Positions 5,663 to 55,636 of a stretch of 64,000 nt of DNA are shown piece by piece (position 1 is the first letter of the stretch; each line of letters begins with the position of its first letter). The notes beneath the pieces were generated by a model that was not told the DNA's origin, did no database searches, and was given only the letters and a program-made list of their open reading frames with translations. Source of the stretch: Escherichia phage PC3; the sequence record ON184125, one strand, 5' to 3'. The translations under genes were made by a program, and so were the position numbers.

Positions 5663-5969
5663 CAGTGGAGGGGGAGGAGACTCCCCCAATAACTACACAA
5701 TCATCGACCCTGGTGCTGATCAGCTGGCGATCATCAAGATCACTTCTGGCAAATTCCGTGGTGTTCAATTCCGGTTCGGCAAGGTGGCCATCAACGAAGT
5801 GGACTGCGAACCCCGCCTGTCTTTCGTGACTGATATATTGAAGAAACCATTGCGTCTGATGTTTGTGAATTTGAAAGAAAATGACTTGTTCACTGAGGTG
5901 TCAGGGGATATCCTTGTAGACCTCATGCAGCGTAATGCTCAGGAATATAATAAATTTTTGGTGGGGTAA
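5640..5969 (+). CDS. hypothetical small protein (start uncertain)
   Basis: ORF between uvsX and the helicase; in-frame ATG at 5640 overlaps the uvsX 3' end; a GGGGGAG/CTCCCCC hairpin lies inside the 5' region. Confidence 0.3.
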   Translation: MLSTQANNSGGGGDSPNNYTIIDPGADQLAIIKITSGKFRGVQFRFGKVAINEVDCEPRLSFVTDILKKPLRLMFVNLKENDLFTEVSGDILVDLMQRNAQEYNKFLVG

Positions 5970-5976
5970 GTGGCCA

Positions 5977-7401
5977 ATGTTACTCGAATCTGTCGTGCTT
6001 TCACAGTTGATTTACAATGAAGATTACCAAAGAAAGATCCTGCCGTACCTGAAAGCCGATTATTTTGACAACGAAGGCGAAAAGGTCATCTTTGGTCTGA
6101 TTGACAGTTATACCTCAGAGTACAATGCCCGCCCGTCTGTCGAAGCACTATCTATAATTCTTGAACGGACAAAGCTGAACGAATATGTGTTTGACCAGGC
6201 GGTATCTGCCCTGGAGAACATCAACGACAACACCTTCAATGAAGAGTGGCTGGCGAAGGAAACCGAGGCTTGGGCGCGACAAAAGGCCGTACACAACGCA
6301 ATCAAGACCGCCGTTAACATCTACGGTGACGAGAAGCGCAAGGACGAGATGAACAACATCCCGACCATGTTGCAGGAAGCCCTGGCTATCCGGTTTGATT
6401 CATATCTCGGTCACATCTATTGGGAGATGGCGGCAGAGCAGTATGACCACATGAACTCCAACGAGGCCAAGATCCCGTTCGCAGTTGAGATCTTCAATAA
6501 GGCGACACGTGGTGGCGTTGGTAAGAAGACACTGAACATCGTAACAGGTGCGATCAACGCAGGTAAGACCACAACGCTGATTGACCTGACCGCAGGGTAC
6601 TCGGAGCAGGGGCTGAACGTCTTTGTCTTCACCCTTGAAGTGGCCGAGAACGTCTGGCGACACCGTCTTGATGCCCGTATCATGCGTCGCGACTTTGAGT
6701 CTTTAGAGAAACTCACAAGGCACGAGTATATTGCAACGATAGAGAAGCTCCGCAGTCGCCAAGATGGTGCGCCCAAGGGTGATATCGTCATCAAGGAATA
6801 TCCTTCCGGTACTGGACACACAGGTTTATTCCGCCGCGATATCCTTGAGTACATCCAGGCAACTGGTCGTGCTCCTGATGTTATCGTTATTGACTATCTT
6901 GGCGAAGCTGCTTCCTCGCGCCTGCCTGCCCACCTGATGCAGAACACGAACGTCTATTACACGTCTGTGGCTCGTGAGTTTCGTGCGCTGGGATTTGAGT
7001 TTGATGTCCCTGTATGGACTGGTATGCAGTTCAATCGTGAGAATCAGAATAGCACTGATGGTGGAATCAGTGATTTGGCAGATGCTATCGGTATTCCGAA
7101 GGTGGCCGACTTCATCATGGCATTCTATGCTCCTGACGAACTGGCGGCGGTCAAGAAAGCCCGAGCCTCAATACTCAAGAACCGTTATGCCAACAAGCAG
7201 AAGCTGAAATCATTCCTGTTTGGTATGGACCAAGACAAACAGATCCTGTTTGACCTGGACTGGAATGAAGTTAAGAAGGACCTGACTGAGGCTGAGGCCA
7301 AATATGTCGAAAACGTACACATCAAACATGACCTCAACAAGTCCGGAGCTGCTGCCAGCGATGAGCAGAAAGCCCAAACGGTCAATAATTGGAAATTCTA
7401 G
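5977..7401 (+). CDS. replicative DNA helicase (T4 gp41 / DnaB family)
   Basis: N-terminus resembles T4 gp41; Walker A TGAINAGKTT; start placed at MLLESVV giving 474 aa (T4 gp41 is about 475 aa). Confidence 0.85.
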   Translation: MLLESVVLSQLIYNEDYQRKILPYLKADYFDNEGEKVIFGLIDSYTSEYNARPSVEALSIILERTKLNEYVFDQAVSALENINDNTFNEEWLAKETEAWARQKAVHNAIKTAVNIYGDEKRKDEMNNIPTMLQEALAIRFDSYLGHIYWEMAAEQYDHMNSNEAKIPFAVEIFNKATRGGVGKKTLNIVTGAINAGKTTTLIDLTAGYSEQGLNVFVFTLEVAENVWRHRLDARIMRRDFESLEKLTRHEYIATIEKLRSRQDGAPKGDIVIKEYPSGTGHTGLFRRDILEYIQATGRAPDVIVIDYLGEAASSRLPAHLMQNTNVYYTSVAREFRALGFEFDVPVWTGMQFNRENQNSTDGGISDLADAIGIPKVADFIMAFYAPDELAAVKKARASILKNRYANKQKLKSFLFGMDQDKQILFDLDWNEVKKDLTEAEAKYVENVHIKHDLNKSGAAASDEQKAQTVNNWKF

Positions 7402-7465
7402 GCAATTCAATAAAGCGGGTCATAGGGTATAATTCTATGATCTGAATGTAAACCAGGAGCACATC

Positions 7466-7801
7466 ATGTCACACAATGATTTTATGGCTGGCCTGGTGCA
7501 GGCCGCCAAACAGGTGTGCCACACCAAACAAGCGATTGAGCTGAGTCCGGAGCAGACTCTGGAGTTCTTCAACAATCGTAAAATCTGGGAGGAATATGGA
7601 ATTGGTATGATATGCCAAGAGGGTGAACTCGTACAGCTGGATCTACCGTCATTTCCCCTTCCAGTGCGCACCAACACAGTGGAATGGTATACGACGGAAG
7701 ATGGTGTAGAGATCATCCCGAAGTTCCAGTATCACTCAATCGTAAACTTCTTTTTACGCCGTTGCGGGACTAATCTGATCCCACAAGGTATGAGATCTTA
7801 A
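7466..7801 (+). CDS. hypothetical protein
   Basis: 111-aa ORF preceded by TATAAT at 7428-7433 and RBS-like AGGAG. Confidence 0.45.
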   Translation: MSHNDFMAGLVQAAKQVCHTKQAIELSPEQTLEFFNNRKIWEEYGIGMICQEGELVQLDLPSFPLPVRTNTVEWYTTEDGVEIIPKFQYHSIVNFFLRRCGTNLIPQGMRS

Positions 7802-7816
7802 CAAGAGGAACACCAA

Positions 7817-8131
7817 ATGTCTGTAGAACAAATCGGCTTTTATGTACTACCATCTGATCCTGAATCCCGTCGCAAGCTGATAGGTGCAATTGAAAACTGT
7901 CGTGCCGCCCAGGTCCGCATCAAGTCGGAACAGACTTTCATTACTGAGACTCTGGCCGAGCTGGCGAAAGACACGGGTATCAAGGCCAGCGACTTGCGCA
8001 AGGTTGTATCCGACCGCGCCAATGGAACTTACCATAAGACGATCGAAACGAGCGAGAAATATCAAGACTTATACGAGTCTCTATTCCCGAACGCCAAGCC
8101 CGATCGAGACCCGAATGTCAGTGGCGAATAA
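7817..8131 (+). CDS. hypothetical protein
   Basis: 104-aa ORF with RBS-like AGAGGAA upstream. Confidence 0.45.
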   Translation: MSVEQIGFYVLPSDPESRRKLIGAIENCRAAQVRIKSEQTFITETLAELAKDTGIKASDLRKVVSDRANGTYHKTIETSEKYQDLYESLFPNAKPDRDPNVSGE

Positions 8132-8224
8132 GTCAATCGAACACCAAGAAGCCCAGTCAAGTACTGGGCTTTTTACTTCAATAACTTTACTTTCAAGAAA
8201 TAATCGCCTAATATTTAATCTGTA

Positions 8225-9451
8225 TTGAAGAGTTACAACTACATCATGAGGCTGGAAATGAACGTCAAAACATTCAATATTCCGATCGACAATGAAGGGT
8301 TGGTAGTTGAGCGACTGAAGAAGCTCGAGCGCACTGCCGAAAGGTTGGGTGTTCCGTTTCCGACTGTGACTTATGGTGAACCCTTCAAAACCCACACCCG
8401 CGACTTCACTGGTGAGATCATTACTCACTGGTGGAAACCTGTTACTCTTGAAGGCGAAGGCATTGACCGCCCCGTCTCTTATGGTGGCTGGAAGATCATC
8501 GGTCAGTTCAATCACGAATATCCAAAGGTTATTCTTAACCGCCTGTCCGACAACATCAATCCTGACTTCATCCGTCGCTTCGAGACAGAGAACGTCTCTT
8601 GGTGTCAGCATTGCAATCTAGCCATCCGTCGCAAGAACACGTATGTGATTGAAAATGAGGAAACGCATACCCAGATGCTGATTGGTAGCACCTGTATGCA
8701 TCATTATGTACCTCATCAGAAATCGCTTGACGCGATTATGTCTTACTATCTGGGGATCCAAGAGTTCTTCATGCCAGAAGAGGACGACCCAGAGGGTATA
8801 TATCGCGTCCAAAATGAGCGCTTCACCGATACCCACAGTTACCTGCGCGCATGCTTCCAGGTGATGCTGGCAGGCGTGGATATCAAGTCTGAACTGTTTG
8901 ACAAAGTACTGGGCTATGTCCGGTCTCACCAGAAACCAAAAGCAGGTTCCGATGAAGAGTATTTCGTAAACAAGGCACACGAATACCGTGAAGATGCCGA
9001 GTCGGAAATGTACCATATGAAGCTCTTCATCAGTGCGCTGTCCGAATCTAATGAGTTCAATGTTCGCCTGAAACGCATGTGTGAACCCGGCTATCACCTC
9101 ATCAAGGATAACAACACAGTCCGCTGGGGTGCCAAGAAGTATTACGATTACATCCATCGTCCTCGTACTGACCGCAAGGCGGAGAACAAATGGGTGGGTG
9201 AAGTCGGTGAAATGCTGGAAGTGCAAGTCAGGTTCGACAAGCGCACCTTTCTCTTCTCCAATGAATATGGTGATAGTTACCTGTTTACTTTCAAAACAGC
9301 AGAAGGCAATACAATTACCTGGAAGACCTCTTATATGGATACAGAGTTCTTGCAGGGCGATATGATCATCCGTGGTCGTGTCAAAGAACTGACTGAGTAC
9401 AACGGCGTTAAACAAACTCAGGTCACTAGAGCCAAATTGAGGAAATTATGA
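8225..9451 (+). CDS. hypothetical protein (Cys/His-rich central segment)
   Basis: 408-aa ORF; WCQHCNL...STCMHHY cluster may bind metal; no family assignment. Confidence 0.55.
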   Translation: MKSYNYIMRLEMNVKTFNIPIDNEGLVVERLKKLERTAERLGVPFPTVTYGEPFKTHTRDFTGEIITHWWKPVTLEGEGIDRPVSYGGWKIIGQFNHEYPKVILNRLSDNINPDFIRRFETENVSWCQHCNLAIRRKNTYVIENEETHTQMLIGSTCMHHYVPHQKSLDAIMSYYLGIQEFFMPEEDDPEGIYRVQNERFTDTHSYLRACFQVMLAGVDIKSELFDKVLGYVRSHQKPKAGSDEEYFVNKAHEYREDAESEMYHMKLFISALSESNEFNVRLKRMCEPGYHLIKDNNTVRWGAKKYYDYIHRPRTDRKAENKWVGEVGEMLEVQVRFDKRTFLFSNEYGDSYLFTFKTAEGNTITWKTSYMDTEFLQGDMIIRGRVKELTEYNGVKQTQVTRAKLRKL

Positions 9452-9564
9452 ATTTGATTGAGTTTGTTCTGAAGTCGTTCGCCTTTGGTCTGATAGCATG
9501 TGGGATGATTACAGCTATGCTTCTCATCATAGCCCTGGTCATCCCCTTTAAGAGGAAACGCTGA
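9448..9564 (+). CDS. small hydrophobic peptide (38 aa)
   Basis: ATGA-coupled to the upstream gene; translation is mostly hydrophobic (single TM helix). Confidence 0.25.
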   Translation: MNLIEFVLKSFAFGLIACGMITAMLLIIALVIPFKRKR

Positions 9565-9776
9565 TGGAATGTTCATGCGGAGGGCAGGGCACAAGTGCTT
9601 ACCTGCCATTCACCACTGTGAAGGAAGCCGAAGCCGCCGGATTTGCCGTAAGCAAGGCTCCCTGTGTAATCGCCACGAAGGATTGCCCGTGCTGTAAGAG
9701 GCACTCTCAGGACGTCTTCTACGCCCCTGATGCGCGTCCGGCTACGGTCAACCTACTCTCACTGATGAGGAAGTGA
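9564..9776 (+). CDS. small Cys-rich protein
   Basis: 70-aa ORF with CSCGG...CPCC motifs. Confidence 0.3.
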   Translation: MECSCGGQGTSAYLPFTTVKEAEAAGFAVSKAPCVIATKDCPCCKRHSQDVFYAPDARPATVNLLSLMRK

Positions 9777-10028
9777 CATGCGCAAGTATTTCAATTGGCT
9801 GTTGGCAAGCCCCTGATGCGCTGAGATCCGTTGTCTAATCGATGCCATTGACGCCAAGGCTGTTTACAAAGCCCTCTCCCGACATCACAAGCGCTAGATT
9901 AATCGCACAGAGGCTCAGGCCGAAATTAAAAATCGTGAAGAAGTCCACAAGGCTCTGGGTTTCATAACAAATAATTCAATAAACTATTCACCCATATAAT
10001 ACATGGGAACTTACAGAAGGAACAGACC

Positions 10029-10370
10029 ATGACTACACTCGTAGAAACATTATTCCCAGGCTGCGTGCTTGGGCGCGGCGGATCCGAAGCCAACGGGCTA
10101 CCGATTGACGTCGAACCTCAGAACTGTGTTATTGTTGACAAGTTTCACGACAACCATTATGTCCTGAACAATCGTCGTGACCACTATCTTGTTTCCGTAG
10201 GAGATTCTTTGGTCAGTCTGCGCATCTGCAAGGCTATGCCAGGATCCGGCTATGGAGCATTCGCCTATATTCACAGCGTGTCAAATGACGAGCTGGGTAA
10301 AGAAGCTCTGGTTGAAAAATTCAAGAGTTGGAAGGATTCTTTCACCTCAATTGAACCTCCGAAGAAATAA
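10029..10370 (+). CDS. hypothetical protein
   Basis: 113-aa ORF with RBS AGAAGGAA and upstream TATAAT at 9995-10000. Confidence 0.45.
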   Translation: MTTLVETLFPGCVLGRGGSEANGLPIDVEPQNCVIVDKFHDNHYVLNNRRDHYLVSVGDSLVSLRICKAMPGSGYGAFAYIHSVSNDELGKEALVEKFKSWKDSFTSIEPPKK

Positions 10371-10483
10371 CTGAGGACTACACACTGACCTCATTATCGG
10401 TCAGGCAAAATCTCACACCCGCCAATAATCTATTGAAGTCCCCAGGGTTATAATAGCAGCACATATAACCCTGGAGACACCAC

Positions 10484-11908: not shown

Positions 11909-12123
11909 TGAAAGTGTATTTGCTGCAGTATCATGATGGGTGTGACGGTCTACAGGTTCAATCCGTGTCCGGGACGCCAGAGGACGCCCAAAACTCCTTT
12001 CTTGAGAAAGCAGAGGCCTGGGGATTTACCCCAAAAGTGGCGACCCAGCATTTCAGTATTGAGATCTGGGACACAGAGACGGGTTGTTATGTTGATGACC
12101 TGAAAATCGAACTGAAGGGGTGA
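11908..12123 (+). CDS. hypothetical protein
   Basis: 71-aa ORF, start coupled to ligase stop. Confidence 0.4.
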   Translation: MKVYLLQYHDGCDGLQVQSVSGTPEDAQNSFLEKAEAWGFTPKVATQHFSIEIWDTETGCYVDDLKIELKG

Positions 12124-12127
12124 TCTG

Positions 12128-12385
12128 ATGGACGAGCTATTCGCATTGGTGATTGCATTAACGTTCTTACTGTCCTTGATTATCAGCTCGCTTGTGTTGT
12201 TGCTGGTGTGGATAGCTATTCCCGAGATCAATAACCACAAGGCGCTCGTTGTCGTGATTATCCTAGGTCTGAGTGCTTCCCTTACTCTTCACTATTCCAA
12301 ACAGGAGTATAATCCTAACAAATATTACAAGACATTAGCGGACAAGTATCATGAGTTTAAGAATGAAAGAACTTCCGGTAAATGA
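12128..12385 (+). CDS. small membrane protein (2 predicted TM helices)
   Basis: Hydrophobic stretches LVIALTFLLSLIISSLVLLLVWIAI and LVVVIILGLSASL. Confidence 0.4.
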   Translation: MDELFALVIALTFLLSLIISSLVLLLVWIAIPEINNHKALVVVIILGLSASLTLHYSKQEYNPNKYYKTLADKYHEFKNERTSGK

Positions 12386-20945: not shown

Positions 20946-21014
20946 TTCCGGTTCCTCTTAATAAACGAAGGGAAGTATATACTCCCCCTTCTTCAATAAC
21001 CGCTGAATCTTTAT

Positions 21015-24400: not shown

Positions 24401-24425
24401 TTGATGTTACCAAACAAGAGGTCGA

Positions 24426-24448
24426 GGCGGTAATAATACCGCCTTTTT
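24426..24448 (+). terminator. hairpin with TAATAATA loop followed by T-run
   Basis: GGCGG-TAATAATA-CCGCC then TTTTT; loop sequence shared with hairpins at 39256 and 42094. Confidence 0.4.
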
Positions 24449-24450
24449 CT

Positions 24451-24861
24451 TCAATAGAGGTCTTCGGAAAAGAGTTCGCGGAAAGGGGTTGTCTTCAGGC
24501 GCACCTGATTGATCTGTCCAGCTTCACGGGCTACGATGCACGCCTCTTCACGAGTGAGGAAGTTGCCCTGGTTGTCGATGAATCCCTGTTCGCGGGTATG
24601 GGTGGATTTAATGACGCCTGCTTCTTTCAGGATCTTGAGCTGGCTGTTCATGAATCGGCTGTGGTGACGGTCAGCAACGACGATTACATCACCATATTTG
24701 TTGGCGGCAGCGACCACACGGCGCTCCCAGGCACCTTCGACAGGAAGGTCACGGGTGTACAATGGAATCATCGTATCACCGATGTCATCCCCCTTCACCT
24801 GTGAGAACAACTTGCCTTCAGTGCCCGTTGGGAGTTCACGAAAATATCCCAGTAATTTCAT
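24451..24861 (-). CDS. hypothetical protein
   Basis: 136-aa ORF. Confidence 0.45.
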   Translation of the reverse strand: MKLLGYFRELPTGTEGKLFSQVKGDDIGDTMIPLYTRDLPVEGAWERRVVAAANKYGDVIVVADRHHSRFMNSQLKILKEAGVIKSTHTREQGFIDNQGNFLTREEACIVAREAGQINQVRLKTTPFRELFSEDLY

Positions 24862-30865: not shown

Positions 30866-30910
30866 ATGCGCCTCCTGATTGAAGCGGGGAGTTTCCTCCC
30901 CTGTAACTAT

Positions 30911-37944: not shown

Positions 37945-38020
37945 AGTATAGAAATCCTATCAATGTCAAAGGGGAACATATTGGTTGAGTGGGTATAATA
38001 CGGTGGGTGTCTTCAATTGA

Positions 38021-38043
38021 AAAAGCCCTCGGCTGAGGGCTTT
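38021..38043 (-). terminator. rho-independent terminator (AAAAGCCCTC-GGCT-GAGGGCTTT)
   Basis: GC-rich hairpin with T-run on the minus strand downstream of the 38051 gene end. Confidence 0.55.
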
Positions 38044-38050
38044 GTTCAGA

Positions 38051-38736: not shown

Positions 38737-39273
38737 TCATTTCGTTTCCCCCTTGGCAGCATAGGACAGTGCCTGAACAATCATTACAGCCAGATCGATC
38801 GGCGAGTAGGTGCTGTTCAGATCTTCTCGAACACTCTGCTCGATTTCTTCATCAGACTGGACCACAGGACAGTTCTTTCCCTGGCGACGGCGTTCTGTGT
38901 TGATCATATCACGCAGGAGCAGATTGGTGAAGGAGTACTCGTCAAAGTTCTCCAGGTATTTCTGAATCCCAGTGGATACAGGGGTTGGCTCCGGCTCCTT
39001 TGCCCCAGGATCTTTCAGGGCAGCAACAGTGGCATCAATATCCCACAGAGGGTTCATCAGTAACAGAAGATTAACTGTTTCTCCTGACTCTGAAGTCGGG
39101 TTATTTCCCAGCACCTTGTAAAGATTCTTCAGGGTGCTGTCAAAGGTCAGAACGGTCTGTGCCAGTTCTTCATAAGTTGGTTTGGTAGTCATCAGCGTTT
39201 GCTCCGGCGTTTGTTCTTCATCTTTCTTGGCTTGTCTGTCATGTTCCTGTCCACGAAAAAGGGGATAGAGCAA
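38737..39273 (-). CDS. hypothetical protein
   Basis: 178-aa ORF. Confidence 0.45.
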   Translation of the reverse strand: MLYPLFRGQEHDRQAKKDEEQTPEQTLMTTKPTYEELAQTVLTFDSTLKNLYKVLGNNPTSESGETVNLLLLMNPLWDIDATVAALKDPGAKEPEPTPVSTGIQKYLENFDEYSFTNLLLRDMINTERRRQGKNCPVVQSDEEIEQSVREDLNSTYSPIDLAVMIVQALSYAAKGETK

Positions 39274-39292
39274 TAATACCCTATCCCCTTTT
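39256..39292 (-). terminator. long hairpin (AAAAAGGGGATAG...CTATCCCCTTTT) with CAATAATACC loop
   Basis: 13-bp stem flanked by A/T runs on both sides; sits between two minus-strand genes. Confidence 0.5.
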
Positions 39293-39304
39293 ATTGAAGA
39301 ACGA

Positions 39305-42093: not shown

Positions 42094-42128
42094 AAGGGGA
42101 ACGGGCTAATAATAACCCATTCCCCTTT
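42094..42128 (-). terminator. hairpin (AGGGGAACGGG...CCCATTCCCCT) with TAATAATAA loop plus T-run
   Basis: Downstream of small ORF 42154-42321; followed on the minus strand by TTTCTTTT. Confidence 0.45.
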
Positions 42129-42153
42129 ATTGAAGGAAGCAACCCCAGTCAGA

Positions 42154-47181: not shown

Positions 47182-47202
47182 CTGTTTGTCAAAGGGTTAA
47201 CA

Positions 47203-47220
47203 GGGGGAATTATATCCCCC
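47203..47220 (-). terminator. hairpin GGGGGAAT-TATA-TCCCCC downstream of the DNA polymerase
   Basis: Perfect 7-8-bp stem between the polymerase stop (47235) and the next gene start (47181). Confidence 0.4.
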
Positions 47221-47234
47221 TTTGGTTTATTGAA

Positions 47235-48816
47235 TCAACCTTTCTTCTTTTGCATCATGGCAAGAAGGTTCACACGGCGCTTGTGTGACCAGCCGACCAC
47301 GTCGAGGATAGACTGAATCGGATCAATGAAGGACTTCTCAAAGGCCGCCTGATAATCCACCCATTTGCCCAGACCAAGCTCCTCGGGGAAGAACTCAGGA
47401 TATGCAAAGTAGTTCTGCCCAAACGGGTTGCCCGGCTTCAATAACACCATCTGTACCTTATCACCCGACTCGATCATCGGTAGACCCAGATCTTCGTTCT
47501 TCTCAACCAGACGGTTGTAGCCCACACACGCCTTGGCAGCAAAATGAGCACCAGATATAAACGAGCCGTCAGCAGCCACACACTTCTCTATGTCGGACAC
47601 GCCTGACGCCTTGGCGATATCGTCTACAGAGAGTTTCATGTACTCCTCTTTGTACTGGGAGATGAGCGTCTGTACTTCCTCTTCGGTGCCGAGTAGGATC
47701 TTCTCATAACACTTGACAAGACGCTCACGACACCATTCCGGCGTGGTGGACTTGCGGGCTTCCAGACCTTTGAACTTGATCTTCGGCTTCTCATACTTGA
47801 TACCCTCACTGTCGTACACGGCCATGGCATACATCTTCTTGGCTCGCCAGACAGCGGCTGACGCAATGACCTCACGCTCCCATACCATACGCTGTTCAAA
47901 TCCGTTCATGGTGTTACACAGAAGCTGTGCCCACTCATTGGTCTTCGGCTGGTAGTTGTCTTTGATCCATTGGTCGATATTATCAACCATAGCATGATGG
48001 TCAGTAACATCAGGCCACAACTGCTTGACAAGACGCTCAATGCAGATGTAGTTGGAGTCGGTATCACCTGCGATGACGAAGTCCTGGCCTGTTGTACCAC
48101 ACAGCTTGTTCAGATAGTCATCAGTGTAACGCTTGTTCCACTTGTTGATCAGCTGACCGGATGTGGTGATGGCTTCGGCAATGTTGAGGTTGAAGTACTC
48201 TTTGAACCAGACGTTCGAGATCGCGCCATAACCTGCGTTCATCAAGATCTTCAGACCTTGCTGTAGGGTATCTTGAGCGACGCCCAGGTCTTCCCACTTC
48301 TTCATCACTTCGGTCAGGGCATCAAGATCAATGTTCTTGTGCTCTTCATACCACTCTGGGTCATAGTAGCGAGACTTCATGGCAGACTCAAGATGGAAGT
48401 CGCCCTTCGACATCTCTTTACACCAGCCAGCCCACTGCTCATACTTCAGACCCTTGGCCTTCTCTACTTTACGGTCGCTGTAGATACCACGCATGATTTC
48501 AGACAGGAACGACATCTTCTCGTTGCTGAAGAATTGAACGTTCGGTGTGAACGACACGTTGTAGCGGCGCAGGGTTTCAAAGTGGAACTCACCCAGGGCA
48601 ACCAACTCATCAACAACCTGCAGGCGTTCGTCAACCGCACGCAACAGCTTGTCGTGAAGGGCTTTCATCAACCGACGTTTGTGCATCGGCGTTGCCATGT
48701 TATTCATCTGAGCAGCCAGCTCTTCACACATAGCCTCAATAATCTCGCGGCGCTGGTGTTTGTCGCCAACGATAGTCTCAGGACCGAGGTTGTACTGCTG
48801 AATGATGTGTGGATAT
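47235..48816 (-). CDS. DNA polymerase (family B) exon 2: second half of motif A through C-terminus
   Basis: Starts with YPHIIQQYNLGPETI matching T4 gp43 YPSIIRQVNISPETI; contains motif C VIAGDTDSNYICIE; both exons together are 3000 nt in frame. Confidence 0.85.
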
Positions 48817-49281
48817 CGCTTGTGTTCAGGGATGCTCGCTATTTCATCCCCCGTGTTCGTCATTCAGTTTACCGAACACTGCTGTATGTCACCATACAGG
48901 CCAGACTATATCACAATCTCCAGAACTGTCTAGAGATTCTCTCCATTTCGAGGCGCTTGCCCCTACTCTACTCGCTTCAGATCAGACGCTTAGTCGTCGG
49001 TCTTGCTTTCGATAGTCGTTGAACCTTGTCGCCCACTACTTCAAGGAAATCATCTGGGTTTAACCCAGCGTAACCAAAGAGTCGTTTGAAGTTTCTTGCC
49101 AACTTGCCCCACTCATTCTGGCAAACATTTCCTTCATGACCTTACTCCTTCACCGAGGTTACAGAGTATTTAGATCTTCGTGGCCGACCTTGGCTGCTGA
49201 TTATCTCTAAAGAGACTTCCCAGCAATTAAGAGAGTTATTCGATGGTTGTCGCCAACCAAAGCCCCTATGCTGCTAACTTA
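48817..49281 (-). mobile_element. group I self-splicing intron, ORF-less (~465 nt), inside the DNA polymerase gene
   Basis: Interrupts motif A between DLNSL and YPHII; 5' exon ends in U that can pair (U-G) with intronic GGGG guide; intron ends in G; GGGTTAAACCCAGATGA, ACGACTAAGCG and GATATAGTCTGGCC resemble T4 td intron P3 and P7 elements from memory. Confidence 0.7.
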
Positions 49282-50699
49282 AGGGAGTTCAAATCTTCCG
49301 AGAAGACCCAGAAGTAGATTCCTGGTGTCACATCCATGACGTATGCACCCTCAAAGTCGGTCGGACCATCGTATACACGCTGGATCTTAGGCACTATCCC
49401 CTTCTCGTACAGGCGATAGTAGCACATGGCCAGCCACGGAGCCACAGTGCCCAGACCGTCTTCATAGTTGGACTTGGTGCGGTAGGCCAGGACGAACATC
49501 AGTTGGAGCAGGCGCAGCTTCTGTTCAAGTCGCCATACCAGCTTAACGTCTTTGATACCATATCGGGTGTGTTTGCAGTAGTCGTTGAAGTACAGATCAA
49601 AGAGCGACTTGCTCTCACTGTAGTCCATCTTCTTCTCACCCAGCTCACAATACGCAATCCAGTCAAGAGAGTAGCGTTCACGGGTGGTGTACGTGTGTTT
49701 CTTGTAGATCTGCATATAATCGAGCATAGGGCAACCCACGAACTGATACGTCGTGATATCGCCCTTCTTATCGCGAATGATACGCTTCTTAATGATACCC
49801 CAAGGACTGAGGCGCGACGTTTCAGCCTCACCCAGAACCTGATTCATGCGCTCAACAAGATAAGGGCTATCAAACGTCTCAATGTTCCAGCCTGTCCAGC
49901 CGTCGAACTGACGCTGTGACCAGAAGTCAAGGAAAGATCGCAGCAGATCCTGCTCGGTGACAAACTCCTTGTACTCCACCTCAAGTCCACCGATCTCCGC
50001 GTCTTCTGGATCGTATCTGAACTTCGCACGATCCTTCGCGCACGGCATACCCCACACCATGAACTTATTGGTCGCCATGTCCTGAAGCTGGATCAGGGTA
50101 ATGGGGAACGCCGCATTCATGTCTTGGGTGATCTTACCGTTGCTGTCAATGATAGGGAACTGATCAGTGACGTTGTTGCTGATAAAGGAACTGGGAAAGT
50201 GCTCACGGATGAAGTCATGGTTGGCCAGTACCTGCTGATGGAAGCGGCGAATGCGCGCCTCATTCCCTTTGAACGTCTGCTGCTCAATGGTTGGGTGAGG
50301 GAATGGACCTTTGGTCATCTTTCCATCTTTCCACCCGGCGGAGAACACTTCGATATCGAGGTTAGCAATATGGATGTTGGAGTAATCCGGCTCAATCTTT
50401 CCAGGAAAGCTATGGGCGATGAACTGGTATGCATAATCGGTCTGCCCGTAAATGGCTGCACCCTGGACTTCCTTGTACTCTTCAAGGTAGTTGTCAGCAG
50501 TGCGCATGTCAGGGAACTTCTTGGAGACCAGGGGTTCGTTGAGCAGGCCGACCTTTTCAACATTTGAATAATCAGCCGTGGGTAAATAGAGAGTGGGTTC
50601 GAATTTCTTTTTCAACAGACGGCGATTACCCATGTCATCTGCAATTCGAATCAACAGGTCATTGCCCCTGCGGGCAACGTTCGTATAGAAAACGGTCAT
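49282..50699 (-). CDS. DNA polymerase (family B) exon 1: N-terminal and 3'-5' exonuclease domains through first half of motif A
   Basis: N-terminus resembles T4 gp43; Exo I HIANLDIEV; ends ...GAYVMDVTPGIYFWVFSEDLNSL then stop in the unspliced frame. Confidence 0.85.
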
Positions 50700-50778
50700 G
50701 TAATTCTCCAGGTTATCCGTGCCGTTAGCACGTGGGTATATTTAACCATAGAGCCATTCATTGACCAAGGAGTTTATT

Positions 50779-51351
50779 ATGGCAATCCCCCTCGTTGGTA
50801 TGATCCCAGGGGCGCTCAAGCAACTCTGGAACCTCGGGACTGATTTGATCCAATATAAGCGGGAAGTTGTACAGGCCAAACACGACGTCAAGCTGGAGGC
50901 CATCAAGTCCTCCTCAGATTGGGAGCTGTCTAAGATTACCGAAGTCGGCGGGTCTTGGAAAGACGAATTCTGGACTATCGTGTTGGCCATACCCGCCATC
51001 CTCGTCATGACTGCTCCGGTTGTGGAACTGATTCTGTTCCCTGGTGAGTATCATAAAGGGGATTTCATCAAAGCAGTAATCGGTGGCCTTCAGGCACTAG
51101 ATACCGCACCTGAATGGTATACCTATTCGTTATTGACAGCAATTAGTGCATCATTCGGTATCAAAGGCTACAACCACTACAAAAGCAACAGGCGAAAAGC
51201 CCAAGCTATGGATGCTCTCAAGCAATTTGGGGTTCGGGTCGTACAGAAAGATCCCACTGTTGTTACTCAGTCGGGTTCTCCCGATCTTGAGTCTGCTCCC
51301 CCAGCTGGGTCTACTGCGACCTCTGGTGCGTGGCCTGATCTGAAGAAATAA
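50779..51351 (+). CDS. membrane protein (holin-like candidate)
   Basis: Start placed at ATG 50779 after AAGGAG RBS; hydrophobic helices near both ends. Confidence 0.4.
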   Translation: MAIPLVGMIPGALKQLWNLGTDLIQYKREVVQAKHDVKLEAIKSSSDWELSKITEVGGSWKDEFWTIVLAIPAILVMTAPVVELILFPGEYHKGDFIKAVIGGLQALDTAPEWYTYSLLTAISASFGIKGYNHYKSNRRKAQAMDALKQFGVRVVQKDPTVVTQSGSPDLESAPPAGSTATSGAWPDLKK

Positions 51352-51357
51352 GTTCAA

Positions 51358-51381
51358 GGGGAGGAAACTCCCCTTTCTTTT
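51358..51381 (+). terminator. rho-independent terminator (GGGGAG-GAAA-CTCCCC then TTTCTTTT)
   Basis: Perfect 6-bp GC stem, GAAA tetraloop and T-run immediately after the 51351 stop. Confidence 0.7.
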
Positions 51382-51393
51382 GGTGTTTAGGGA

Positions 51394-51606
51394 ATGAATG
51401 TGGTAAACAAGAGATTGCTCGTCACCCAAGGCGGGGCGACGATAGTGCGCGGAAGGATCTATGAACAAACACAGCTGGGTGATCACAAGACACGCCTGAC
51501 TATTAAGGCTCCCGATGGTGGTTGGCCAACAAAGGTGATTGTCCCAGACGGTCTCATAGAACGAGGGTCGGCGGTGTATAAAGGAGCGGAGTTCAAAATT
51601 TATTAA
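51394..51606 (+). CDS. hypothetical protein
   Basis: 70-aa ORF. Confidence 0.4.
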   Translation: MNVVNKRLLVTQGGATIVRGRIYEQTQLGDHKTRLTIKAPDGGWPTKVIVPDGLIERGSAVYKGAEFKIY

Positions 51607-51692
51607 AATATTTATTGAATAAAGTTTACTTCTTCAATAACTGGCGTATACTTCTAATTGTAGTACGAACAAACAACAATCTGAAGAGAAGG

Positions 51693-52010
51693 AAATACAT
51701 CATGGCAATCACAAAAGAACAATTTGAAGCACAACTGGCTAAATCTAACAAAGAAACCGTTGTTGCTACCTTTAAGTTCCACGCAGTGAGAAACGCAGAA
51801 GCGCTTATGATTGCCCAGTCTTGTACTCCAGACTCAACTTTCAACTCTGTCGTCTCTTCGGCTTTGTTTGACAACCCAGCGTGTGGGCTGGTTCCGGCTT
51901 CCTTCCTGAAAGCCCTACACAAAGCATTCAACGATTTTATGGTGGTTGACGCGGTTGAAGAAGTTTGCTCCCGCTTGACATTCAAAGATTCTAAATTCAT
52001 CTTTGTCTAA
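51693..52010 (+). CDS. hypothetical protein
   Basis: Start placed at MAITKEQ with GAAGGAAA RBS. Confidence 0.45.
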   Translation, partial: KYIMAITKEQFEAQLAKSNKETVVATFKFHAVRNAEALMIAQSCTPDSTFNSVVSSALFDNPACGLVPASFLKALHKAFNDFMVVDAVEEVCSRLTFKDSKFIFV

Positions 52011-52053
52011 TTACAAAGCCCCTCCGGGGGCTTACTTTGAACTGAAGGGCTAT

Positions 52054-52608
52054 ATCATGACAATACCAAAAACTGCTGTCCGTATCGCTGTTGAGCCTCT
52101 GTTATCACAGGCTGAAGAAGCTGCCGAGCAGTACGCGAACAAAATCATCAAGAACGTGATGGACGACCTGGCCGCCAACGGCTGGGATCTTCAGAAGTGC
52201 GCCCCTTGGCCGTCAACTGTCGGCGTCCGGATGGGTCACCACGATTACCACCGCATGAAGGCAAAACAGTCCTTGTATATGAGCCTGACTACCGACAATA
52301 ACCCGCCAAACCGCTCTTATCAGGTCGGTGCGCCGAACATCGTCAAGGCCGATCCAGAGCGCCAACGTCTGTTCATCAAGGAAGCCCGTCGCAACGCTGC
52401 CTATCAGTATGAGTCTTTCATCTGTAAACTGGAAGACAAGATTGGCGGTCATAGCGCGGCTGTCCTCGACGGTTCCCACATTTGGGGACATTCAATCCTG
52501 ATCGTGACTACTCCGGAAGGGGTTCAGCGCTGGAAGACTCAGACGATCATCAATGTGTCTAAGCTGGGCAAACTCTTTAACCAATATCCAACTCGCAAGG
52601 TGAAATAA
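52054..52608 (+). CDS. hypothetical protein
   Basis: Start placed at MTIPKTAV; 184 aa. Confidence 0.45.
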   Translation: MMTIPKTAVRIAVEPLLSQAEEAAEQYANKIIKNVMDDLAANGWDLQKCAPWPSTVGVRMGHHDYHRMKAKQSLYMSLTTDNNPPNRSYQVGAPNIVKADPERQRLFIKEARRNAAYQYESFICKLEDKIGGHSAAVLDGSHIWGHSILIVTTPEGVQRWKTQTIINVSKLGKLFNQYPTRKVK

Positions 52609-52967
52609 TGGAAAACAAAATCAAATTGACCTGGCGCGTCGCCCCTGAACCAACGGGGCGCTATCGCTCCTTTGAGCGCCGCGCATGGCCGTCAGCCGAG
52701 TACAAGAACGGCGCTTGTGCGGCCTATATGTCTCACGAAGAAAGCTATGAACCATCTGTTCACCGAAACGCGACTGATCTCGTCATTAAACTTCACATCG
52801 CCAAATGGGATCAGAAAGAAGACGGGCGCTGGGGATTCAAATGGCGTGTGTTGAACAAGCGCGCTTCTTCCATTGCAGAAGCCAAACAAATCGTGGAAGA
52901 GTTCCTGAATGGTCAGGCGAAGAACTCTGTGGTGCACCCGGACTACCGTGGAGGGGAAGTGAAATGA
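52608..52967 (+). CDS. hypothetical protein
   Basis: 119-aa ORF coupled to the upstream stop. Confidence 0.45.
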   Translation: MENKIKLTWRVAPEPTGRYRSFERRAWPSAEYKNGACAAYMSHEESYEPSVHRNATDLVIKLHIAKWDQKEDGRWGFKWRVLNKRASSIAEAKQIVEEFLNGQAKNSVVHPDYRGGEVK

Positions 52968-52992
52968 AGAAAGGGGCTTAATGCCCCTTTTG

Positions 52993-53451
52993 TTATTCTT
53001 CCCAGAAGTCGTCATCGTCACCGACGGCGGCCAGTTCCGTGTCCAGGTCTTCATCACTGAATGGTGGCAGCACGCCATTCTGGATCAGATAATCCATCTC
53101 ATCGTCTTCCAGCTGCAGGTCAGTGGCAATATACAGCGCTCCACTGCCCTCTTCGTCCGTCTCGATGCTATACGAAGTGTATGGCACCCCATTCACCGTG
53201 ATGATGATAGACGTTGGATCCTCGGGATCTACGTGAGCCTCGAACGGTACGCCGTCAATCGGTGCATCTTCCAGGAAGGTGGCAAGGGCTACGGCGGCGC
53301 GGACAACATCAGTGCCTTCAACGCCTGCATAGATCTCTTCCGCGCCCGTCTCTTCACGATCAAACAGCTCAATCGTGATACCGTCTTGAACACCAGTCCA
53401 TACAGGGATGTCATTGGTGTATTCTGATTCAAACAATTTGGAGGTTGGCAT
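52993..53451 (-). CDS. hypothetical acidic protein
   Basis: 152-aa ORF with strongly acidic C-terminus. Confidence 0.45.
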   Translation of the reverse strand: MPTSKLFESEYTNDIPVWTGVQDGITIELFDREETGAEEIYAGVEGTDVVRAAVALATFLEDAPIDGVPFEAHVDPEDPTSIIITVNGVPYTSYSIETDEEGSGALYIATDLQLEDDEMDYLIQNGVLPPFSDEDLDTELAAVGDDDDFWEE

Positions 53452-53595
53452 GTTGGGTTCCTCAGTGGGTTAGCCATATGGGGTATTTAGGCTTCCCGCT
53501 TGGCGAGGCCTGGTTTGTACAGGACGCCTCTCGGAAATATTGGAGGAAGGTTTTCATAGATACCCCACACGGATTGTATGGGGTATTCAGGAGGG

Positions 53596-54870
53596 TCAGG
53601 AAGGGGTGAAGTCGTTTACAGGAACTGTTTCAGGGATAGCCAGCTCAGGGCATGCTGCCTTCATCGGCTCTATGTATGGCTTGCTACCCACAATCCAGAA
53701 CAGAGTGTTCTCATTGAGCACCTCTGGCTTGTTCTGCTGGATCCAGGTCATGACCTTGCCTTCATAGCGAGGATGCAATTCGATATCACCCCACTGATAT
53801 TCCATCAGGTCATTGTAACGAACCCAATTAGTGGTGTGAAGATCCCAATGGTGTACCTCAAAGCGAGGAAGCACGACCTCTGGCTCTTCCTTCTGCCTGA
53901 TACCACTTAGGAGGCCAGCCAGAGAAACGCTCTTAGAGGCATGCTGAAGCTCCTTCTTGCCGTGTACATAGTCTGGGTTGTCGTGATAGCGACGGGTGAA
54001 GTCGACAATGTGCGGCAGATTGGCATGTTTGCCGATGATACGCAGACGGCTCTCAATGAAGTCCAGGCGGTTCGGACCGATGCCAATCAGATACACACGC
54101 TTCAGATTAGGCTTCGGATGCATTGCCAGCCCGGTCAGAATGCTTGTGCAAGAGTTGCACGATCCGGCTGGGATAATCAGATCGGTAATATGGTCAGGGA
54201 TGTTGGCAACCTGCTCGCCACCCAGCATATGGAAGCCAGCGATGCGCTCAGGAGAATGCGCTGTATGGTCGAGGGTGATACCATATTCCAGATAATACGC
54301 CTTTGGATTCTGTTGTTCGATCAACTTCTTACAGCGCGGCTGGATCGTGCTGTTGTAACCCGAGCCGACGAAGTTGAACTCACTACCAAACCAGGCTGAC
54401 ATTGCCACCATGTCGTGGTTCATACAGGTGGTGGGTTTGGTCGCTCCGAGTACAGTGGTTGTCTTGCCGCCGAAGTGCCGAGAGACTGCCGTCGCCATAG
54501 GGGACTGCGGACTACCAACGACAGTACCATGGATGATGTCAGGGGAGCCTCCAGTCTTCAGGTGCTCAACCATCAACCAGATGGCCTGGCGCAACTTACT
54601 GCCATTGATGCCCTGCTTGCCATTCATATAACAAGATAGCGGCGCGAAGTAATCTTCACGCTTGAACCAGACCTGCTGGTTAGTTTCGGGGTTGGCGACG
54701 AGTTCACACGGAGTGTGTTTGTAGAGGTAGTCTTCCCAGTGAATATGTTCACGATGAAGAGAGAGGACATCAAAAATCGTTTTGTATGGACCTTTCCCTA
54801 ACGTGTGGAACGGGATATACGTGCGGAACGGGATATATGGAGCGAGGGGTTGTGCAGCGAATTTGTTCAT
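53596..54870 (-). CDS. PLP-dependent fold-type-II enzyme (ACC deaminase / D-cysteine desulfhydrase-like family)
   Basis: KREDYF...NGSKLRQ (candidate PLP-lysine motif like KRED...GGNKxRKLE), SPQSPMATAVSRHFGGK, DLIIPAGSCNSCTSILTG, LFWIVGSKP align by eye with ACC deaminase motifs. Confidence 0.65.
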   Translation of the reverse strand: MNKFAAQPLAPYIPFRTYIPFHTLGKGPYKTIFDVLSLHREHIHWEDYLYKHTPCELVANPETNQQVWFKREDYFAPLSCYMNGKQGINGSKLRQAIWLMVEHLKTGGSPDIIHGTVVGSPQSPMATAVSRHFGGKTTTVLGATKPTTCMNHDMVAMSAWFGSEFNFVGSGYNSTIQPRCKKLIEQQNPKAYYLEYGITLDHTAHSPERIAGFHMLGGEQVANIPDHITDLIIPAGSCNSCTSILTGLAMHPKPNLKRVYLIGIGPNRLDFIESRLRIIGKHANLPHIVDFTRRYHDNPDYVHGKKELQHASKSVSLAGLLSGIRQKEEPEVVLPRFEVHHWDLHTTNWVRYNDLMEYQWGDIELHPRYEGKVMTWIQQNKPEVLNENTLFWIVGSKPYIEPMKAACPELAIPETVPVNDFTPS

Positions 54871-54939
54871 TCTATTTCTCCTGTAGACATTGGCTTATCA
54901 TAGCGTATCTACAGGAGTATAGAAAAGGAGAATCTCGGC

Positions 54940-55584
54940 TTATTTCTTGAATAAACGAAGGAACTTCATCATGTTTTCCATGAAAGTCGGCTTCTTGACC
55001 TTTTGTTTTACCGGAGCGCCCTGATCATTCAGAACACGATTGGCCGGAGGAGTTGGATTCAAAGATTTAATTGCCTGATTCAAATCGGAATTATCCACGA
55101 CACCCACTTCTTCACCGACCGTAACGCATGGTTTGATTAGAACGGATTTCTTAGACTGCTCATACTGATGAGCGATATCCAGATATTTCTTGCGCTCTGC
55201 GTAGAAATCAACAGACTTGACCTTGCGACGACGCCAATTGGCGCTTTCTTCGCCATAGAAATCATATCCGTTTCTGATCAGCCAGTGCACGGCTTGTTCA
55301 AACGAACCGAAGACCATAAGTGGAGCGCCCTGGCCTTTCTCAGATTGTTCCAGGCTACCATAACCCATCAGCACAACCTGGCCTTTGATACTCAAATCAA
55401 ACGTCATACCAAGGTTCGGGATGTTTTTATCGCGGCGGAAGAACCCGCCATCACGGTAGACGTAAACAGGCGACAGGAACTCATTCAGAGTGCGCTTGAC
55501 ACCCTTGTATTGGAAGAGTCTGACAATTGGAGGGGTGTCATGGGAAATCACTTCGTTCAATTCCCAGATAGAAACATTACGCAT
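54940..55584 (-). CDS. hypothetical protein
   Basis: 214-aa ORF. Confidence 0.5.
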   Translation of the reverse strand: MRNVSIWELNEVISHDTPPIVRLFQYKGVKRTLNEFLSPVYVYRDGGFFRRDKNIPNLGMTFDLSIKGQVVLMGYGSLEQSEKGQGAPLMVFGSFEQAVHWLIRNGYDFYGEESANWRRRKVKSVDFYAERKKYLDIAHQYEQSKKSVLIKPCVTVGEEVGVVDNSDLNQAIKSLNPTPPANRVLNDQGAPVKQKVKKPTFMENMMKFLRLFKK

Positions 55585-55606
55585 TAGTGTATCCTCAAAT
55601 CTATGA

Positions 55607-55636
55607 TAGGGGGTTAACGGTTAAATTTTAAACCCC
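55607..55636 (-). terminator. hairpin GGGGGTT...AACCCCC with AT-rich loop
   Basis: 7-bp G/C stem followed by TTTG on the plus strand; lies between the tRNA region and the 55584 gene start. Confidence 0.4.

Follow-up and report, generated by a model that had tools for sequence, protein, structure and literature searches.

The DNA described here is a 64-kb stretch of Escherichia phage PC3 (ON184125), called the window throughout, which is 100% identical to positions 91,896-155,895 of Escherichia phage PH4 (ON184126.1). PH4, a ViI-like phage related to T4, is a member of the subfamily Aglimvirinae within the Ackermannviridae. An 8-bp box, TTCAATAA, is repeated in this DNA, and most of its intergenic copies are oriented with the downstream gene and followed 12 nt later (range 11-14) by a sigma-70-type -10 hexamer, TATAAT or TATTAT. 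At most sites the G-rich spacer between box and hexamer pairs with a C-rich segment downstream, and the hexamer stands at the apex of the stem-loop. We propose that these sequences are probably composite promoter-terminator cassettes, placed between prereplicative genes throughout the family, which resemble the PeSL and PmSL elements of T4-type phages and carry a new box at about -30.

An earlier note on the window had described recurrent hairpins of five G and five C residues, often accompanied by the octamer, as a phage-specific promoter or terminator grammar; it had missed the -10 in the loop and the fixed spacing between box and -10. Genome-wide statistics given below refer to all 155,895 bp of PH4, with its 192 annotated genes. 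Coordinates are those of the window unless preceded by g, which marks the numbering of the PH4 genome. Relatives were collected by two protein-anchored scans of IMG/VR, which yielded 23 and 22 Ackermannviridae loci with 70-100% protein identity to PH4. Expected frequencies were obtained from 100 dinucleotide shuffles of the whole window and from a separate set of 1000 shuffles of intergenic DNA alone, which is more AT-rich.

Frequency of the box and its spacing to the -10 hexamer

The window contains 18 exact matches to the box on both strands, against 2.17 expected, and none of the 100 whole-window shuffles reached 18; further copies carry one mismatch, and some are inverted. Twelve of the 18 lie in non-coding DNA, which makes up 11.3% of the window (binomial p = 4e-8), and in the whole PH4 genome 24 of 32 fall in the 9% that is non-coding (p = 4e-19). 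Shuffling the intergenic DNA alone gave an expectation of 0.37 for these 12 boxes, with a maximum of 4 in 1000 shuffles. The earlier note had named a frequency equal to expectation as one part of the outcome that would count against its proposal, and the octamer is commoner than expected in both comparisons. Nine of the 12 intergenic copies point toward an annotated gene start no more than 250 nt away, which bears out the orientation with the downstream gene that had been claimed for them. The octamer coordinates reported earlier were accurate to 0-4 nt (204 rather than 206 and 8177 rather than 8173, together with 39291, 42127, 47227 and 59224); at 1171 a site is indeed present, but it carries the one-mismatch variant TTCAATAG and not the exact octamer. 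The six intragenic octamers (6493, 17566, 20242, 24176, 47437 and 59020) are not accompanied by the arrangement of -10 and hairpin, and their occurrence is probably incidental.

The distance between box and hexamer is tightly distributed. For PH4 boxes with at most one mismatch, the distances cluster sharply at 12 nt (11 sites); 19 sites fall at 11-14 nt, and there is a minor peak at 6 nt. The combination of a box, a spacer of 11-14 nt and a -10 hexamer matching at least five of six positions occurs 10 times in the intergenic DNA of the window, against 0.09 expected. A position matrix was built from 71 box/-10 sites in 11 genome segments (PH4 and ten segments of divergent relatives), and 35 of the 71 have the 12-nt spacer. 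In this matrix G predominates in the spacer, and the segment that follows the -10 is rich first in C and then in T, while upstream of the box there is zero information, with neither a -35 hexamer nor an UP element; a hidden canonical -35 upstream of the box was ruled out on this basis.

The sites fall into classes A, B and C. Class A comprises the box, a spacer of 11-14 nt and the -10, with a hairpin, and has nine sites in the window. In class B the box is inverted, (T)TATTGAAG(A), and lies 9-10 nt from the -10, and a hairpin is usually present. Class C is a repeated cassette of about 110 nt formed by an AT-rich region, TTTACT, a 16-17-nt spacer containing TTCAATAA, TATACT, a conserved leader and a Shine-Dalgarno sequence with its ATG; a second, inverted box often lies 20-22 bp upstream.

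In class A the box occupies about -32 to -25, in place of a -35 element. No TTGACA-like -35 is found at 16-18 bp from the -10 of these sites, where a simple scan gives weak sporadic matches (for example TTGATT with an 18-nt spacer at 47238). With the 12-nt spacer the -35 position reads nnnTTC and is not conserved, so that, judged by sequence, class A sites are not canonical sigma-70 promoters.

The hairpin around the -10 and its conservation

Folding of 40-nt segments at the 16 class A sites of the genome, scored as z against 200 shuffles, gave values from -2.6 to -6.4 at nine of them, where at most 1 of 200 shuffles folded as well (1171, 7406, 39291, 42127, 47227, g33884, g51142, g54368 and g57725). 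Another site, g34145, is borderline (z = -2.05, with 7 of 200 shuffles folding as well), and 55644 reaches z = -2.9 only upon full-length refolding. Stems are weak at 9975, 57903, 59224 and g90914, and there is none at g47275. Stems reach 16 bp, with loops of 4-15 nt, and since their sequences are unrelated from site to site, the cassettes cannot be duplicates of a single element. A T-run comes after roughly half of the strong stems (1171, 39291, 42127, g45978, g51142 and g57725).

The folds are strongly biased to one strand. Over 97 class A segments the mean fold is -18.3 kcal/mol for the sense strand and -13.7 kcal/mol for the antisense strand; the sense fold is the better one in 84 of the 97, and G·U pairs number 220 in sense against 64 in antisense folds. 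Among the independent PH4 sites, 13 of 16 favour the sense strand, and the three exceptions are weak-stem sites. G·U pairs stabilise the transcript of one strand only, whereas a cruciform in double-stranded DNA is symmetric, and the G·U bias consequently indicates that the hairpin is probably selected in RNA. Furthermore, 59224, the only class A site without a co-directional upstream gene, has a 4-bp stem and folds better on the antisense strand, and the near absence of a stem there suggests that selection acts on transcripts entering from the upstream gene. As far as the folds allow a judgement, the hairpin has probably been selected in RNA as a terminator, an attenuator or a 3' stabiliser of the upstream gene. 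An Rfam scan of the window, in which two tRNAs and a group I intron reached gathering score, matched the cassettes to no known RNA family.

The box and the -10 are maintained in relatives while the sequences around them change. Of the 23 region-1 loci, 22 show an 8-15 fold enrichment of the octamer, with a bias to the gene-sense strand; the exception, L009, is a 4.4-kb fragment in which it does not occur. Orthologues of 39291, 42127, 47227, 1171, 7406 and g90914 keep the -10 together with the box or the same one-mismatch variant of it, with altered flanks and stems. At the 39291, 42127 and 47227 orthologues the octamer is invariant in nearly all full-length loci, with 17 distinct orthologues of the 39291 site and 14 of the 42127 site, all of the latter with the invariant octamer; the exceptions are L024, whose 47227 site has the variant TTCAATAT, and a few of the most divergent loci, which have no match. 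At 9975 both elements are kept in L031, and the box reads TTCATTAA in L029. The loop hexamer retains the pattern TAnnnT across genomes while the stems change.

Changes in the stems tend to preserve pairing. At 42127 the stems of L023, L025 and L016 differ from that of PH4, the arms being AGGGGAATGGG/CCCGTTCCCCT in PH4, ATGGGGTTACAG/CTGTAACCCCAT in L025 and GGGGTGCA/TGTACCC in L023. At 7406 GTCATAG/CTATGAT becomes GTCGTAG/CTACGAT in LIMEstone1, and L030 has an A-T to G-C compensatory change. The 1171 site, whose stems have changed among its 13 distinct orthologues, has GGGGTTGC/GCAGCTCC in PH4 and AAAGGCCGC/GCGGCCTTT in L047, where the T-run is retained, and the 47227 orthologue of L025 has a different stem, AGTGGGG/CCCCACT.

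In MAFFT alignments the arms shift by 1 nt in register between clades, which makes a fixed-register count of pairs conservative and weak. For this reason an alignment-free swap test was used, in which native 5' and 3' halves were compared with cross-genome chimeras at six sites. Native arms were the more stable at all six (-23.5 against -17.2 kcal/mol at 42127 and -12.0 against -8.8 at 7406; -19.9 against -18.0, -16.1 against -13.2, -20.1 against -17.6 and -15.2 against -9.2 at the other four), in trials that are not independent because the orthologues are phylogenetically related. In the fixed-register alignment of site 1171, 91.7% of cells are paired, compared with 32-71% for slid registers; formal covariation at this site is modest, with one pair changed on both sides, because most changes within close clades are from G·U to G-C or A-U. 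Taken over all sites, the comparative evidence for covariation is good, and it rests mainly on the few most divergent genomes among sequences that are not independent.

Part of the pattern can be recognised in the GenBank annotation of Dickeya phage LIMEstone1 (HE600015). There the 42127 orthologue is a putative factor-independent terminator, the 39291 orthologue a terminator with a nested minus_10_signal and the 1171 orthologue a terminator, while the orthologues of 204 and 8177 are, respectively, a putative early promoter and a putative middle promoter with a terminator. The 7406 orthologue is unannotated, and the box is annotated nowhere.

Proposed function, precedents and alternatives

In the mechanism we propose, host RNA polymerase would use the -10 in the loop and start about 7 nt downstream, inside the 3' arm of the hairpin, and the new transcript would then lack the hairpin. 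Transcripts reading in from the upstream gene would carry the whole hairpin, and could be terminated, attenuated or 3'-stabilised by it. The box would replace the -35 element, and would probably be read by a phage-encoded factor or by a modified host polymerase. The cassettes may in addition act as repeats between which open reading frames (ORFs) are gained or lost. The grammar suggested earlier as promoter or terminator would on this proposal be both at once, as the fixed 12-nt distance between box and -10, the gene-directed orientation and the paired hairpin wrapping the -10 suggest. Its description as phage-specific does not hold, because the pattern is shared across the whole family and is similar to that of the PeSL cassettes in T4-type phages.

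PeSLs, or promoter-early stem-loops, were described in RB49 and phi1 as poly-G/poly-C stems lying in the gap that separates the -35 from the -10 or overlapping the -10, and their promoter and terminator activity was shown by lacZ fusions (Arbiol et al. 2010, PMC2839356). PeSLs were recognised in PST/T4 and nt-1/KVP40 as well by Comeau et al. 2014 (PMC4122927), who also described PmSLs, in which a Mot box is joined to a -10. Like PeSLs, the PH4 cassettes consist of a repeated intergenic predicted promoter with a G-run/C-run stem-loop upstream of early or small genes; the stem, which in RB49 most often lies between the -35 and -10 or over the -10, has arms that fill the spacer and the region downstream of the -10 in PH4, and cassettes bound the gain or loss of ORFs, for PH4 in the one case examined. 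Class C alone also shares the AT-rich upstream region, the T4-type -35 (TTTACW) and the spacing of about 17 bp. The two differ in the phages that carry them, T4-type in one case and Ackermannviridae in the other, and in that class A has TTCAATAA 12 bp from the -10 and no -35; furthermore, activity was demonstrated experimentally in RB49, whereas the PH4 cassettes are known from sequence.

A second precedent is provided by the MotA/AsiA middle promoters of T4 and the PmSL of nt-1, which have a sigma-70-type -10 and, in place of the -35, a box near -30 that lies 11-13 bp upstream. T4 middle promoters also stand upstream of DNA-metabolism and replication genes, and the nt-1 PmSL adds a stem-loop. 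The Mot box itself, (a/t)(a/t)(a/t)TGCTT(t/c)A, is unrelated to TTCAATAA, and no TGCTT occurs in the PH4 box. The PeSL/PmSL type of architecture is thus already known, and what the predicted cassettes add is the Ackermannviridae host phage, the -30 box and the absence of a -35 in the main class.

The box itself appears to be previously undescribed. Full-text literature searches, with subscription-only papers such as the Viunalikevirus genus proposal outside their reach, returned no description of the octamer as a phage promoter element. The early promoters of CBA120 were reported as not identifiable by informatics (Kutter et al. 2011, PMC3184105), Anany et al. 2011 (PMC3121705) listed only eight sigma-70-like promoters and some late promoters, and in the LIMEstone paper (PMC3296691) promoters were assigned where the sequence resembled T4 consensus sequences. 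Biocontrol and diagnostics are fields in which ViI-like phages (Kuttervirus, Agtrevirus, Limestonevirus and Taipeivirus) have found wide use or have been proposed. A box that is common to the family and fixed in its geometry would offer a testable promoter model for their prereplicative genes, with which transcription units could be drawn in the several hundred sequenced genomes of the family. The cassettes might also serve as compact promoter-terminator parts for reporter-phage engineering and the box as a bait sequence for the missing regulator, and the PeSL idea, in which regulatory cassettes serve at the same time as linkers for recombination that shuffles ORFs, would be extended beyond T4-type phages.

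Several observations weigh against the composite reading. Promoter and terminator activity are both predictions, and the literature searched contains no transcriptome or transcript mapping for Ackermannviridae or Kuttervirus. The strong stems at 7406, 47227, 55644, g33884 and g34145 have no T-run and are not canonical intrinsic terminators. The box is also found in other arrangements: in class C it stands 6 nt from the -10, at 204 it lies upstream of a -35, and class B has it in inverted orientation. A Pfam scan of 30 of the 192 PH4 proteins (early-cassette gene products, annotated regulators and small rII-proximal genes) for a reader of the box returned only one match, a generic one to the HU/IHF family. 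The relatedness of the orthologues in the swap test and the modest covariation at 1171, mentioned above, belong on the same side.

One alternative, which overlaps our proposal, gives the box mainly the role of an operator and not of a -35 surrogate. A DNA-binding protein of the phage, such as PH4_064 or an unrecognised regulator, would tune promoters through it, turning early ones off and others on. Inverted boxes, boxes within the spacer and boxes paired at two helical turns suggest that TTCAATAA is a protein-binding site, which the variety of its positions (12 nt from the -10, 6 nt in the class C spacer, upstream of the -35 at 204, inverted in class B) would fit better than a core promoter element in fixed register. 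The paired boxes stand 20-22 bp apart at class C cassettes, the extended form TTATTSAATAA is palindromic, and the phage encodes a protein of the HU/IHF family. We nevertheless consider a mainly operator role unlikely: the dominant layout is a single 12-nt spacing to a -10 without a -35, as in an essential promoter element, the HU-family protein is a generic one and gives no hint of sequence specificity, and the 3' half (TTR) of the IHF consensus is missing from the sites. A host IHF site (WATCAANNNNTTR) was ruled out separately, the 3' TTR half being missing from the logo.

A protein dedicated to reading the box has, in our estimate, rather less than an even chance of existing. We tentatively raise the idea, which we hold to be doubtful, that TTCAATAA is the site of a putative Ackermannviridae transcription factor that replaces -35 recognition, as an independently evolved analogue of MotA/AsiA, and that activates middle promoters of the box-N12--10 type and, when bound to the box within their spacer, shuts the early TTTACT ones. 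If this were true, a single protein reading a single 8-bp word would bring about the change from early to middle expression in a family with hypermodified thymidines. No Pfam match to MotA or AsiA was found among the 30 of 192 PH4 proteins scanned, and homologues of these or other T4 early and middle regulators were reported to be absent from the ViI-like phage CBA120 (Kutter et al. 2011, PMC3184105).

The HU/IHF match is PH4_064 (g58821-59099), annotated as a transcription factor, a 92-aa protein of this family (Pfam Bac_DNA_binding, E = 6e-30). A sequence search of the PDB identified it as a generic HU/IHF relative, with TF1 of SPO1 among the matches and not the best of them. TF1 of SPO1 binds DNA containing hydroxymethyluracil (hmU), and ViI-like phages carry hmU-derived thymidine modifications. 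A one-mismatch box, TTCAATAT, lies 80 nt upstream of the PH4_064 start codon. We regard this protein as a weak lead to the reader of the box.

It is improbable that the elements are only terminators or stabilisers of RNA 3' ends, with TATAAT in the loop and the box both incidental, reflecting AT-rich loops and an A-rich 5' flank that pairs with the U-tract. LIMEstone1 does annotate terminators at these places, the sense-strand G·U bias is shared with intrinsic terminators, and the T-runs of 39291 and 42127 have a pairing partner in the A-rich end of the box; a GC-rich stem and U-tract stand right after a stop codon at 1171, 39291, 42127 and several sites outside the window. Intrinsic terminators differ from the PH4 elements, however, in that the latter have a conserved -10 in the loop, a box at a fixed upstream distance and, in about half of the cases, no U-tract. 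The loop hexamer TAnnnT is conserved while the stems change, although terminator loops are otherwise unconstrained in sequence, and both the sequence of the box and its 12-nt distance to the hexamer are kept. Furthermore, the box and -10 are present with little or no hairpin at 9975, 59224 and g47275, and ordinary terminators of the same genome have tetraloops and no box.

We give little credence to a hairpin acting in DNA, as a cruciform or on the non-template strand, where it would expose the -10 in single-stranded form and thereby aid promoter opening or be necessary for it, as with the virion RNA polymerase of N4 or the single-strand promoters of conjugative plasmids. The -10 does lie at the apex at most sites, hairpins without a T-run need another rationale, and a hairpin in sense-strand DNA would tolerate G·T pairs too. 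N4 virion RNA polymerase promoters likewise have key promoter bases in a hairpin; they differ in their stems of 5-7 bp and loops of 3 nt, read as DNA by a phage-encoded single-subunit polymerase, whereas the PH4 elements have stems up to 16 bp, loops of 4-15 nt, a sigma-70-type -10 and a strand asymmetry that points to RNA. That asymmetry speaks against a symmetric cruciform, which was ruled out, and GC-rich stems of 12-16 bp are poor candidates for spontaneous extrusion. Site 59224, of class A and without a co-directional upstream gene, is almost stemless, and box and -10 form a unit at sites without a hairpin. The tested PeSL precedent, moreover, gives the stem-loop a role as terminator (PMC2839356).

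Very improbably, finally, the cassettes would be selfish or recombination-maintained repeats conserved by gene conversion and not for transcription, since most class A sites share only the box and -10 with unrelated stems, and gene orientation and exact spacing are conserved, even though two cassettes are 47/48 identical and the ORF that they flank is missing in a relative and class C cassettes share roughly 110 nt.

Recombination between cassettes, which the composite promoter-terminator reading also accommodates, can be followed in one case, the only one examined for indels bounded by cassettes. Over 48 nt the cassettes at g33884 and g34145 agree at 47 of 48 positions, and a 66-aa ORF lies between them. 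Compared with g33884-34200, Enterobacter phage EspM4VN (NC_049384, 96174-96240) has a single chimeric cassette and lacks the 66-aa ORF and one cassette, about 258 bp in all, which is the outcome that recombination between repeats would be expected to give. In several other relatives, homology breakpoints fall exactly at the g33884/g34145 cassette.

Individual cassettes and other elements of the window

The class A cassette 1171..1216 (+) lies upstream of PH4_111, at the head of a co-directional run of genes for nucleotide metabolism and recombination, among them thymidylate synthase, dUTPase and uvsX; it has its box TTCAATAG at 1171-1178, a 13-nt spacer, TATAAT at 1192-1197, a hairpin at 1181-1209 and a T-rich tail, TGTTTAT (z = -5.1). 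After the helicase gene comes 7406..7444 (+), with the box at 7406-7413, a 14-nt spacer, TATAAT at 7428-7433 and a hairpin at 7416-7444 without a T-run (z = -5.9), followed by the promoter-like site 9975..10007 (+), where the box at 9975-9982, a 12-nt spacer and TATAAT at 9995-10000 are accompanied by a weak 5-bp stem at 9991-10007 (z = -1.5).

The remaining class A sites are on the minus strand. Two of them have TATTAT after a 12-nt spacer: 39258..39298 (-), with the box at 39291-39298, the hexamer at 39273-39278 and a long hairpin at 39258-39291 whose 3' arm runs into a T-run (z = -6.4), and 42094..42134 (-), with the box at 42127-42134, the hexamer at 42109-42114, a hairpin at 42094-42127 and the tail CTTTTG (z = -6.1). 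The cassette 47202..47234 (-) lies directly 3' of the stop codon of the C-terminal fragment of DNA polymerase; here the box is at 47227-47234, the spacer is 12 nt, TATAAT is at 47209-47214 and the G5/C5 hairpin at 47202-47221 has no T-run on the sense strand (z = -2.6). Upstream of PH4_187, the class A-like cassette 55605..55651 (-) has the variant box TTCAATGA at 55644-55651, a 13-nt spacer, TAAAAT at 55625-55630 and a G5/C5 stem with a 15-nt loop at 55605-55645 (z = -2.9). The class A-like site 57879..57910 (-), in a tRNA and non-coding region, has the variant box ATCAATAA at 57903-57910, a 12-nt spacer, TATAGT at 57885-57890 and a 6-bp stem, GGGTTA/TAACCC (z = -1.4), and the promoter-like site 59199..59231 (-), in a divergent intergenic region, has the box at 59224-59231, a 12-nt spacer, TATAAT at 59206-59211 and its 4-bp stem (z = -2.0).

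Sites 55644 and 57903 lie inside a 3-kb stretch without annotated genes (55585-58599), in which tRNA-Ser (55955-56043) and tRNA-Met (56297-56373) were detected and no convincing ORF was seen; degenerate tRNAs or other RNAs may be transcribed from these cassettes. A further box at 58585-58592 (-) has no good -10 at 11-14 nt. About 43 nt downstream of it is the ATG of an unannotated 48-aa ORF (58396-58542, minus strand) with a hydrophobic N-terminus and a strong Shine-Dalgarno sequence, GGGAGGG.

Class B is represented by 10432..10478 (+), with ATTGAAG at 10432-10438, a 10-nt spacer, TATAAT at 10449-10454 and a hairpin at about 10438-10478 (z = -5.6), a site kept in L030, L031 and L038 with a changed stem. 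In 20968..20999 (-), which corresponds to the hairpin at 20967-20990, the inverted box TTATTGAAGAA ends at 20999 in plus-strand coordinates, the -10-like TATATA is at 20976-20981 and the stem contains G·U pairs on the minus, sense strand (z = -3.1). At 24425..24455 (-), ATTGAAG (24449-24455) and TATTAT (24433-24438) are separated by 10 nt, with a hairpin at 24425-24444 (z = -3.2). Finally, 37995..38046 (-) combines a terminator hairpin with a T-run (about 38023-38046) with a class B element, ATTGAAG at 38011-38017, a 10-nt spacer and TATTAT at 37995-38000; it stands upstream of the 918-aa gene, adjoining rIIB, that has an orthologue annotated rIIA in relatives, and the site is kept in L026 and L010.

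The class C early-type cassette of the window, 51612..51652 (+), has an inverted octamer at 51612-51619, TTTACT at 51625-51630, a 16-nt spacer with TTCAATAA at 51633-51640 and TATACT at 51647-51652. It is kept in all full-length relatives, and has four close copies elsewhere in the genome and a looser one at g47275. The class C -35 and -10 match the T4/PST early-promoter type TTTACW-N17-TAYWAT (PMC4122927). Two further arrangements were found on the plus strand: 8149..8214 has a terminator hairpin (8149-8171), the box (8177-8184), TTTACT (8186-8191), a spacer starting with the box-like TTCAAGAA and TAATAT (8209-8214), and at 204..247 the box (204-211) lies 7 nt upstream of a sigma-70-type promoter, TTTACA at 219-224 and TATTAT at 242-247 with a 17-nt spacer.

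Outside the family, an IMG/VR scan for exact TTCAATAA-N12-TATAAT gave almost only single chance matches among the matches listed and is uninformative on distribution. Among those matches a giant-virus contig, L086 (IMGVR_UViG_GVMAG-S-1063923-83_000001), has three such sequences on one strand within 2.2 kb (2467-4610), which may be due to chance in AT-rich DNA or to an unrelated promoter motif.

The five G5/C5 hairpins with which the earlier note began, with z from -1.95 to -3.3, are all significant or nearly so, and they form a mixed group. A strict GGGGG...CCCCC is found at 5670, 47203 and 55609; at 20967 the G5 is on the minus strand only and partly G·U paired, and the hairpin at 51358 is G4/C4. 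The proximity to the octamer holds for three of the five (20967, 47203 and 55607, the last with the variant TTCAATGA), which are embedded in predicted promoters, but not for 5670 and 51358, which have no box nearby and are plain tetraloop hairpins.

The latter two belong to a second hairpin family, located directly after stop codons, with GNRA (GAGA, GAAA) or UNCG tetraloops and in some cases T-runs. The hairpin 5670-5687 (+), GGGGGAG-GAGA-CTCCCCC, lies just 3' of the uvsX stop codon, with neither box nor T-run (z = -3.3). That at 51356-51375 (+) follows a stop codon, has a GAAA loop and a subsequent T-run and no box, and by these features is an ordinary intrinsic terminator; the hairpin at 30886-30901 (-) is near-identical to it. 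UNCG loops (TTCG, TCCG) are found at about 25480 (-), 31420 (-) and 33385 (-), and GGGGAGGAAACTCCCC occurs twice among the tetraloop hairpins. These recall the CUUCGG-type intercistronic hairpins of T4.

Late genes are preceded by a different motif, CTAAATA(C/T)C, which lies 30-45 nt upstream of the start codons of the tail spike, portal, prohead, tail tube and other late genes. In the form CTAAATAcc it is found at 53482-53490 (-), 59488-59496 (+) and 63353-63361 (+), and at many sites in g1-91895. It is likely a late promoter of the gp55 type, corresponding to TATAAATA of T4; according to Kutter et al. 2011 (PMC3184105), the sequence recognised for late expression in ViI-like phages had not been identified. 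A role of the box as late promoter was ruled out, late genes carrying the distinct CTAAATAcc. In addition, a group I intron (Rfam RF00028, 58.6 bits) was detected at 48882-49269 (-), between the DNA polymerase fragments at 47235-48863 and 49266-50699, a placement that agrees with the intron-split gp43 reported for LIMEstone1.

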